A stretch of DNA of 63,058 bases, filler included, from Rhabdomonas costata (taxonomy: Eukaryota), in NCBI GenBank assembly GCA_019059605.1. It is 42 parts of 42 records of this genome, joined end to end, with 100 filler letters (N's around TTAATTAATTAA, not from the genome) between each part and the next. Parts side by side here need not be neighbours in the genome. Positions count along the whole stretch, not along the records: positions 60,153 to 61,555 come from JAHMHO010016948.1; positions 61,656 to 63,058 come from JAHMHO010016949.1; 40 more parts are not named here. One strand, written 5' to 3'. Every line of letters starts with the position of its first letter. Position 1 is the first letter of the stretch. Shown piece by piece: positions 60,153 to 61,970 of this stretch. Below the pieces are notes generated by a model. The model saw only the letters and a program-made list of their open reading frames with translations, ran no database searches and was not told the origin of the DNA. The position numbers and the translations under genes are program-made.

Positions 60153-61150
60153 TTTTGGGTGTCCTGATCACCCCATCTGGCAAGGGTGTCATCGAGGCAC
60201 TTGGACCAGGCCAGGGGATCGCGGATCTTGGCGCCACGCAGGGTGTACGTGTTATGCAGGGTGTGTACACAGTTTTCAGCTGCGGTCACCGCCTTGAGCT
60301 CTTTGACGTAATAGTGCATCTCGGCCGGTGCCTCAGTGTCCGGCGCTAGCATGAACTCGAAGTTCAGCCCATCGAGGTTCAAGGTCTGGCCATTTTCGGT
60401 GATCAGCTTCGTCGGCGCGATCAAAGTGATCATGCCTTCCGAGCAGGTGAGTCCCAGCCCGGCACCCACCCGTCCGGTCGTAGAGGGCGGGAGCAGATTA
60501 CCGTACATAAACTCCGCACGACGGGACATAGCCGTACCAGCGTACAAGTTTTCAGAAACTGCGGCTTCCATAAACCCCACTGGAGCGATGATCTGAACTT
60601 TGCCGGACTTCACATCCTCCTCGCTCACCACGCCCCGCACTCCACCGTAATGATCCACGTGGCTATGGGTGTATATCACCGCCACCACAGGCTTCCGCGG
60701 GCGATGGGCATAGTAAAGCTCCAAGGCAGCCTTGGCAGTTTCCGCAGAGATGAGCGGATCGGCGAGGATGATGCCAGTGTTCCCCTCGTAGATGGTTAGG
60801 TTAGAGAGATCCGCATTGCGGACCTGATAAAGGCGGTCGGTGACCTTGAACAGCCCACCGATCATTACCAAGCAGGACTGACGCCATAGGCTGGGGTTGA
60901 CGGTGTCTGGCGCGGGCTTCTCTGTATCGATAAATGAAAACTTAGACAAATCCCAAACTACTCGTCCGGAGGAGTCCTTGATCACACCGTTGTCAGGCAT
61001 AGGGGCAATATGTCCCCGAGTGGCCTCCTCGAAATCCCGTTTGTCGGCAAAGTCGAGTTGAGACCTCACCTTGGCATGGGATGCCAAAGTGAAGGAAGAC
61101 GCTGGCTTCGGCGCAACGCTTTCAGCATTGCCTTCAGTCGATTTCTGCAT
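60153..61150 (-). CDS. Alkyl/aryl sulfatase of the SdsA1/YjcS/BDS1 family (metallo-beta-lactamase fold), intronless, 3'-truncated by the contig end
   Basis: APDTVNPSLWRQ, DPLISAETAKAAL, IYTHSHVDHYGG, MSRRAEFMYG, GAGLG, APDTEAPAEM and HTLHNTYTLRGAKIRD in one ~332-codon frame. Confidence 0.97.
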
Positions 61151-61970
61151 CTTGTGGGGTGGGGTGGGGAGTCAGCTGGAAAAAATGGGTTTGATGCAAG
61201 GTACAAAATCAAAAAGTCAAAGCATCCCCAAAAAATGCAATTTCACTTAATGGCATCGGCAGTGTAATACAGGCAATCTTCCACTCCAACGGTCTCACTG
61301 GCTTAACATATTAGTGGTGAGAAATCCGTCACTAAGGTAGCATGGCAAGAGACTATCGACTGCCATCGGAGATACATACCGCATCAGCCATATTGCACAC
61401 TGCACACCCACTCGTTAGGGTCACAAAAAAGAAGGGGTTGCATCACTTGCAATTGCGCCCGGGGCATCCAGGCTTTCAGTCAAACTGGACGGTTAAGAAA
61501 TTCTACCCCTTTTATATTATTCGCTGTGCTGAGGGGAGCAAGCCCACACACCCCCNNNNNNNNNNNNNNNNNNNNNNNNNNNNNNNNNNNNNNNNNNNNT
61601 TAATTAATTAANNNNNNNNNNNNNNNNNNNNNNNNNNNNNNNNNNNNNNNNNNNNTGGACCGAGGAGGAGGGGGCATTGGATAATTAACGGTCTCGAGCG
61701 TTGGCGGCGCCTAAGTTTTTGGTCAGTGTCTCACTCTCTCACTCACCAGACGGCGTCAACGTTTCAGACGCCATAAACTGTCAAAAAAACGGCCTTTAAC
61801 GGTTACAACGGCCTTTAACGGTTAAAACGGCCTCGAAACTCAAGTTACTTCATCTGGGGGATCCAACAGCAAAACCTAATAATAGAAGGTGCAGGCAACA
61901 TCATCTCACCTCCGGGATCAAAAAAAATGTTTCCAAAAGGTAGCAGGGTGGATGCGGGCGAGGTAGGAAC

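Follow-up and report, generated by a model that had tools for sequence, protein, structure and literature searches.

A truncated alkyl sulfatase gene on a 1.4 kb contig

The window analysed here is a stretch of 63,058 nt from the draft genome of Rhabdomonas costata, a free-living euglenid, and its element of interest is a fragment of a type III (S3) alkyl sulfatase gene, which lies on a 1.4 kb contig of this highly fragmented draft. The whole window is composed of 42 pieces of 1396-1405 nt each, ordered by length and physically unlinked. A fixed 100-nt spacer, N44-TTAATTAATTAA-N44, recurs 41 times between the pieces and gives stop codons in all six frames. The sulfatase contig is piece 41 (60153-61555, 1403 nt). 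It is divided from the unrelated preceding contig by the artificial spacer at 60053-60152, and a second spacer (61556-61655) stands before the next, equally unrelated contig; the same joint is found, for example, at 58550-58649. The original prediction had described an intronless bacterial-type gene in eukaryotic flanking DNA, and had compared its length with that of other exons nearby. Because the window concatenates unlinked contigs, this premise of eukaryotic linkage fails: the stretches left of 60053 and right of 61655 are other contigs, and the exons used for comparison lie on contigs with no physical link to the gene. Neighbourhood arguments reaching across any spacer of the window are void, and the true flank of the sulfatase gene is 405 nt only.

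On the minus strand, an ATG at 61150 opens 329 codons (987 nt; 60164-61150) that are truncated by the contig end, in agreement with the roughly 1 kb of uninterrupted coding previously noted at 60153-61190. The stop-free frame as a whole has 339 codons and occupies 0.72 of the piece, the longest such frame among the 42 pieces (next, 0.61). It matches the metallo-beta-lactamase family PF00753 (E 4e-17), and residues 7-329 match a series of solved alkyl sulfatases, from 4NUR (E 2.9e-132) through 7TL5, 4PDX and 2YHE to 2CFU (E 8.4e-92), which bears out the earlier assignment to the SdsA1/YjcS family. The metal-binding motif HSHVDH of the metallo-beta-lactamase fold (His162-His167; 60650-60667, minus strand) retains the binuclear-metal pattern HxHxDH intact, and H162, H164, D166 and H167 are invariant in a 30-sequence alignment (A1). 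Judged by sequence, membership in the type III alkyl sulfatases (SulfAtlas S3) is solid. By homology, this binuclear-metal, zinc-dependent hydrolase would split primary alkyl sulfate esters into alcohol and sulfate.

Residues 1-329 are 100% identical to the 647-aa protein EP00906_Rhabdomonas_costata_P002802 (RCo004359; P0002), including the same first Met. EukProt is the sole source of this entry, and the protein was predicted from RNA. Full-length RCo004359 also carries the dimerisation domain PF14863 and the SCP2-like domain PF14864, and aligns end to end with its relatives. Only the first of these three domains lies in the window, and a tblastn search for the remainder of the gene elsewhere in the window found nothing. 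Past residue 329, the genomic frame gives three differing residues before the contig ends, with identity stopping at 60164. An intron at this position was considered and rejected, since the departing 10 nt (60153-60162) form a tail of G and T only, a feature shared by 30 of the 42 pieces; this tail is neither coding sequence nor intron, and is most likely derived from an amplification primer. The description of the gene as intronless stands for the 987 nt present, but not for the whole gene, which is cut at the contig end.

We consider it probable that this contig is a genuine nuclear fragment of Rhabdomonas costata, carrying the 5' half of an expressed, bacterium-derived S3 alkyl sulfatase gene. 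Two other origins were weighed against this reading. In the first, the contig is a chimera, in which the coding part of a culture bacterium was fused to a 385-nt euglenid upstream part, in amplification or assembly, at a G/T-rich run at 61152-61169. In the second, gene and upstream sequence both come from a culture bacterium that has not been sampled, and the protein reached the euglenid set as contamination. The likelihoods given here are judgement rather than computation, as the tests are non-independent, the host reference is small and unknown amplification artefacts could matter.

Relatives, start region and upstream flank

Protein searches place RCo004359 among bacterial sequences. Among the matches listed for proteins longer than the fragment (best 120), metagenomic proteins come next after the identical entry, at 74-80% identity, followed by named Desulfovibrionales and others at 69-74%, and the single eukaryotic entry is RCo004359 itself. 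Among those listed for shorter proteins (best 120), the top identity is 81% and none is eukaryotic. The search covered 5.8 billion proteins, and the absence of any near-identical bacterial or metagenome sequence (none above 81% among the matches listed) speaks against a wholly bacterial contig. In a FastTree phylogeny of the 30 sequences of A1, RCo004359 is sister to P0003-P0009 within a bacterial clade that also includes P0010 and P0011; of all terminal branches in this clade, that of RCo004359 is the longest (0.23), though not extreme. This nesting, with no close eukaryotic relative among the matches listed, agrees with the bacterial ancestry originally proposed.

The nearest relative, P0004, is encoded at two metagenome loci, L204 and L192. 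It shares 74.9% identity with the Rhabdomonas sequence across 645 residues of protein and 77% across 883 nt of DNA, and the same codon is used at 127 of the 259 identical residues. At these loci (L204, 1-9038; L192, 1-6537), the sulfatase gene carries GGAG ahead of its ATG and codes for a hydrophobic signal peptide; it adjoins a CitMHS-type transporter, a family-3 solute-binding protein (SBP_bac_3) and two TetR regulators. Together these genes may form a unit that takes up and cleaves a sulfated substrate. Of the hits to a DNA pattern for a clade-specific motif, 2 of 28 in metagenomes (L192 and L204) and 0 of 14 in species-representative genomes encode a relative. When species-representative genomes were scanned with peptide patterns from P0002 and P0008, the matches listed were relatives of 49-60% identity, and they do not bear on the closest relatives. 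Desulfovibrionales were considered as the donor on the strength of the named matches at 69-74%, and this was left unsupported by the best of 401 sampled genomes, at 66%.

The N-terminus of the Rhabdomonas protein contains no hydrophobic stretch: the maximum 12-residue Kyte-Doolittle value is 0.57, compared with 2.5-3.1 in nine of the ten nearest relatives, and the protein begins 13 residues ahead of the conserved mature part. The ATG is preceded by C/A-rich bases with no purine-rich Shine-Dalgarno site, and an in-frame TGA (61172-61174) lies 8 codons upstream. The lack of a signal peptide and of a Shine-Dalgarno site had both been noted before and are confirmed by these comparisons. Because the RNA-derived protein shares the first Met, both the start and the lack of a signal peptide have support that does not depend on the amplified DNA. 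This is at odds with a chimera, since the signal peptide present in nine of the ten relatives is also missing from the RNA-derived protein. The missing Shine-Dalgarno site counts against a wholly bacterial contig, as the nearest relative has GGAG.

Upstream of the ATG, a 25-nt leader (61151-61175, minus strand) separates the start codon from an acceptor-like AG. It contains an 18-nt A/C-only run (G/T on the plus strand; 61152-61169), which lies 1 nt upstream of the ATG. The other 41 pieces have 14 such runs of at least 18 nt in their 55 kb (0.254 per kb; on 10 of the 41), against 0.007 per kb in bacterial and metagenome loci totalling 1.68 Mb, which makes them 39-fold commoner in the other pieces and such a run unexpected in a bacterium. 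The leader is preceded by the pyrimidine tract and AG TTTTTTCCAG (61176-61185, minus strand), the acceptor-like site reported earlier at 25 nt before the ATG and a candidate cis-splice or spliced-leader trans-splice acceptor. By chance, eight pyrimidines followed by AG would be met in the 60 nt upstream with a probability of about 0.025 for the other pieces and 0.012 for bacterial loci.

A similar layout precedes the two host genes with recognisable starts, a comparison that is anecdotal at n=2. The Ssu72 gene (25211-25260, minus strand) has a T10 tract and CAG 38 nt before its ATG, arranged as at the sulfatase, and the isochorismatase gene (11220-11266, plus strand) has a weaker T-rich tract with CAG 29 nt before its ATG. 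Both T-rich/CAG sites are possible spliced-leader acceptors. The 3' end of the Rhabdomonas costata spliced leader is given as CATTTTTTCG in the genome paper (PMC8219788).

The non-coding flank beyond the acceptor-like site (61186-61542) has a GC content of 0.46, no Pfam or Rfam match, and 4-mers like those of the other pieces. As previously stated for about 400 nt upstream, the 405 nt contain no gene-like open reading frame (ORF), the only frames being of 71 and 85 aa. A Pfam scan of the 71-aa frame (the 85-aa frame lay outside the scan) and an Rfam scan of the contig gave no match. No sigma-70-like promoter was found on the gene strand, and promoter- or terminator-like sites on the contig do not exceed the shuffled-sequence rate. 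Comparison of the flank with the other pieces and with bacterial loci returned merely a 14-nt low-complexity match. Only 13 ORF-free regions of at least 370 nt occur in 453 kb of bacterial loci, which makes so long a gene-free upstream region unusual for a wholly bacterial contig, as is the lack of a promoter-like site. With the low-complexity run removed, the 4-mer score of the flank is +0.015, close to that of the host pieces (0.024 +/- 0.011); among bacterial ORF-free regions, 2 of 36 attain the score of the flank. Any link between the gene and host DNA would consist of this 405-nt flank, with its host-like 4-mers and low-complexity run. The flank looks like host non-coding DNA more than bacterial DNA, which favours a real transfer.

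Composition, contig ends and rival origins

Composition was compared with a small host reference, comprising 6 Pfam-verified or clearly coding exons (691 codons) and 55 kb of pieces. Partial eukaryotic-type exons encoding a protein kinase, a sugar transporter, an AMP-binding enzyme, an isochorismatase and Ssu72 lie on other pieces (43667-44524, 46147-46524 and 6786-7154, minus strand; 11222-11746, plus strand; 24650-25279, minus strand), with a GC content at third codon positions (GC3) of 0.70-0.89, and served as host reference. The longest open frames of these pieces are short. The 4-mer score is a host-minus-bacteria Markov model, trained with moderate-GC bacterial loci, with homologous genes masked and the test sequence left out of training.

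Several observations weigh against a gene belonging to the protist, to which the small size of the reference itself must be added. The 4-mer score of the ORF (-0.013) lies within the range of bacteria, where 17.5% of 874 windows reach or exceed it, and is below that of all 6 host exons (+0.004 to +0.020) and of all 41 other pieces (minimum +0.001). The GC3 of the sulfatase is 0.67, compared with 0.70-0.89 in the six host exons (pooled 0.82; Fisher p 1.7e-7), and its usage of GAA, CAT, CGT and CTG differs significantly in each case from that of the host exons. Its codon usage is therefore bacterial-like and not adapted to the host. The 987 nt contain no intron, and native Rhabdomonas costata genes are intron-rich, with one intron per few hundred nt according to the genome paper (PMC8219788). 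Apart from RCo004359 itself, the 240 matches listed include no eukaryotic protein, so that inheritance within euglenids finds no support in them. On a contig of only 1.4 kb, the sulfatase has no host gene linked to it, and the acceptor-like site was spotted post hoc.

The same paper describes a culture that was monoeukaryotic, with an uncharacterised bacterial mix. Genomic DNA came from sorted or microdissected cells, followed by whole-genome amplification with a commercial kit, and the assembly N50 is 1194 bp (PMC8219788). The bacterial mix and two further details add to the case against the protist: a 16S rRNA PCR for bacterial DNA was positive in one of two DNA samples, and the protein set, predicted from polyA-selected RNA, was decontaminated only in part (PMC8219788).

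The proposal of horizontal gene transfer thus retains its nesting within a bacterial clade, the host-like 405-nt flank and the loss of signal peptide and ribosome-binding site, but loses its premise of flank linkage, a concatenation artefact, and must accommodate bacterial-like codons. The 4-mer comparison is likewise divided, with a host-like flank and a bacterial-like ORF. Among transfers, unadapted codon usage is compatible only with a recent one; it supports the recency originally suggested, against which stands a protein divergence of 19-25% from every known bacterial relative.

The contig ends show a recurrent bias. In 30 of the 42 pieces the opening 10 nt consist of G and T alone, and in 25 the closing 10 nt consist of A and C alone, where about 0.001 per end would be expected by chance. 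The sulfatase contig, with its G/T-only start, also closes with a 13-nt A/C-only tail (61543-61555), read as the complement of an amplification primer. A few contig ends, such as those at 10533 and 49635, retain a longer constant G/T sequence; examples of these longer tails are 10533-10561, 18052-18074, 30084-30108 and 49635-49666, the constant sequence being common to the four ends. We read the tails as remnants of a G/T-only degenerate amplification primer, left untrimmed in the public assembly; the commercial whole-genome amplification kit presumably uses primers of this type. The outermost 10 nt or so at either end of each contig is non-genomic.

Of the two rivals, the chimeric contig survives better, although we regard it as unlikely. 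The DNA was amplified and is known to have contained bacterial DNA (PMC8219788), and the contig is a mosaic, bacterial-like in its ORF and host-like in its flank, with the switch at the ATG. Moreover, the segment 61152-61555 opens with a G/T run and closes with an A/C run, like whole amplified fragments in this assembly. Against this, the fusion point would need to sit 1 nt ahead of exactly the ATG at which the RNA-derived protein starts, a coincidence of about 2%, and a correctly oriented acceptor-like site at -25 would be an additional chance event (about 0.025). The run at 61152-61169 lacks the constant primer part seen at the contig ends 10533 and 49635. Because its 18 nt are shorter than assembler k-mers, reads must presumably span it.

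A wholly bacterial contig has a smaller chance still. It would account for the codon usage and 4-mers of the ORF, for the lack of an intron and for the 74-81% identity to bacterial proteins among the matches listed, and prokaryotic forms without a signal peptide do exist (P0009, P0039, P0044, P0070 and P0116). For this project, contamination has been reported in the DNA as well as the RNA, and another RCo protein was called bacterial by the authors of the genome paper themselves (PMC8219788). Set against the gene-free, host-like flank, the missing ribosome-binding site and the improbable A/C run, and with 41 of the 42 window pieces looking eukaryotic, it fares poorly: bacterial gene organisation, with Shine-Dalgarno site, short intergenic spacers and neighbouring genes as in L204, is not encountered on this contig. 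The gene is thus probably, but not provably, in the protist's own DNA rather than that of a culture bacterium.

Other features of the window were recorded in passing. G/T-only or A/C-only runs of at least 12 nt occur at 1.58 per kb inside the pieces and at 0.23 per kb in bacterial loci, a difference of about 7-fold; examples are 6784-6803, 12849-12871, 28620-28645, 40308-40329 and 51813-51835. These internal runs include GT/CA microsatellites and GGGGTGGGG-like motifs, and may all be natural or in part be amplification artefacts. Piece 36 (52635-54038; GC 0.58) has the lowest host-likeness of the other 41 pieces (0.010 and 0.001 in two scorings) and contains a 144-aa frame (53401-53832, minus strand) with no Pfam match. 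This piece is a possible further case of foreign or mobile DNA.

A practical lesson follows for this public draft, which consists of amplification-derived contigs of about 1.4 kb, with primer tails, from a bacteria-containing culture: a claim of a bacterial gene in eukaryotic context that is drawn from a concatenated window of such a draft requires read-level proof.

Proposed acquisition and comparison with known systems

On the reading that the gene is the protist's own, the enzyme of the bacterial ancestor would have been exported by means of a Sec-type signal peptide and its gene preceded by a Shine-Dalgarno site, both of which would have gone in the euglenid copy. Because the protein begins 13 residues before the conserved mature part, the euglenid enzyme is probably cytosolic and would act on imported substrate. 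The short C/A-rich leader and the T-rich/CAG site before the ATG could accept a spliced leader. Alkyl sulfate hydrolysis would suit an osmotroph of organic-rich sediment, as a supply of sulfur or carbon; the sulfur scavenging suggested by the original prediction would be a generic expectation from the family.

Taken together, we give slightly better than even chances to a specific scenario, in which a primary osmotrophic euglenid took over the gene for an exported alkyl sulfatase from a sediment bacterium not yet sampled, dropped its export signal and ribosome-binding site, and gained a spliced-leader acceptor, with cytosolic release of sulfate or alcohols from alkyl sulfates that the cell takes up from its medium. 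The gene would then be the first S3 sulfatase assigned to Euglenozoa, with codon usage that predates adaptation. A real, little-adapted acquisition, which we regard as fairly likely, accounts for all the observations save the lack of relatives in other euglenids among the matches listed. If true, it would be an example of how a bacterial export enzyme becomes fitted to expression in a eukaryote, and would bear on the feeding of an osmotrophic euglenid.

Among characterised enzymes, RCo004359 is similar to SdsAP/PSdsA of Pseudomonas sp. S9 (4NUR), 7TL5, E. coli YjcS (4PDX), Pisa1 (2YHE/4AV7) and P. aeruginosa SdsA1 (2CFU), with which it shares the family, the HxHxDH motif and, in the full-length protein, the dimerisation and SCP2-like C-terminal domains. 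It differs from this group in its occurrence in a euglenid data set and in lacking the signal peptide of its nearest bacterial relatives. Closer still are P0004 (L204/L192), the rest of P0003-P0011 and P0125, which are collinear with it at 74-75% identity over the full length and 79-81% in the N-terminal half, and share clade motifs such as GLGLTCSEG. The P0004 group differs in its hydrophobic signal peptide, in a ribosome-binding site of the sequence GGAG, in a GC3 of 0.76 and in lying among bacterial genes.

No publication on an alkyl sulfatase in euglenids was found by title or abstract opening, and the word 'sulfatase' is absent from the main text of the species' genome paper (PMC8219788). 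What is known already is that the family has been transferred into eukaryotes, and that RCo004359 is in a public protein set.

The yeast gene BDS1 is a eukaryotic S3 alkyl sulfatase attributed to horizontal transfer. Tunicate and spiralian S3 alkyl sulfatases have likewise been attributed to horizontal transfer, with the use of alkyl sulfates as the proposed benefit (PMC13390645). The Rhabdomonas protein resembles BDS1 and these animal enzymes in being a member of the same family found in a eukaryote with bacterial affinities; it differs in that the yeast, tunicate and spiralian genes are placed on chromosomes, the tunicate ones with support from RNA-seq and RT-PCR (PMC13390645), whereas here any linkage to the host comes down to 405 nt of flank. 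The BDS1, tunicate and spiralian sequences are absent from the 240 best matches listed, and the 30 sequences of the A1 tree are other ones. If it is the host's, the Rhabdomonas gene would be an independent acquisition in Euglenozoa, and thus a further independent uptake of a bacterial S3 alkyl sulfatase by a eukaryote, after those of yeasts and tunicates.

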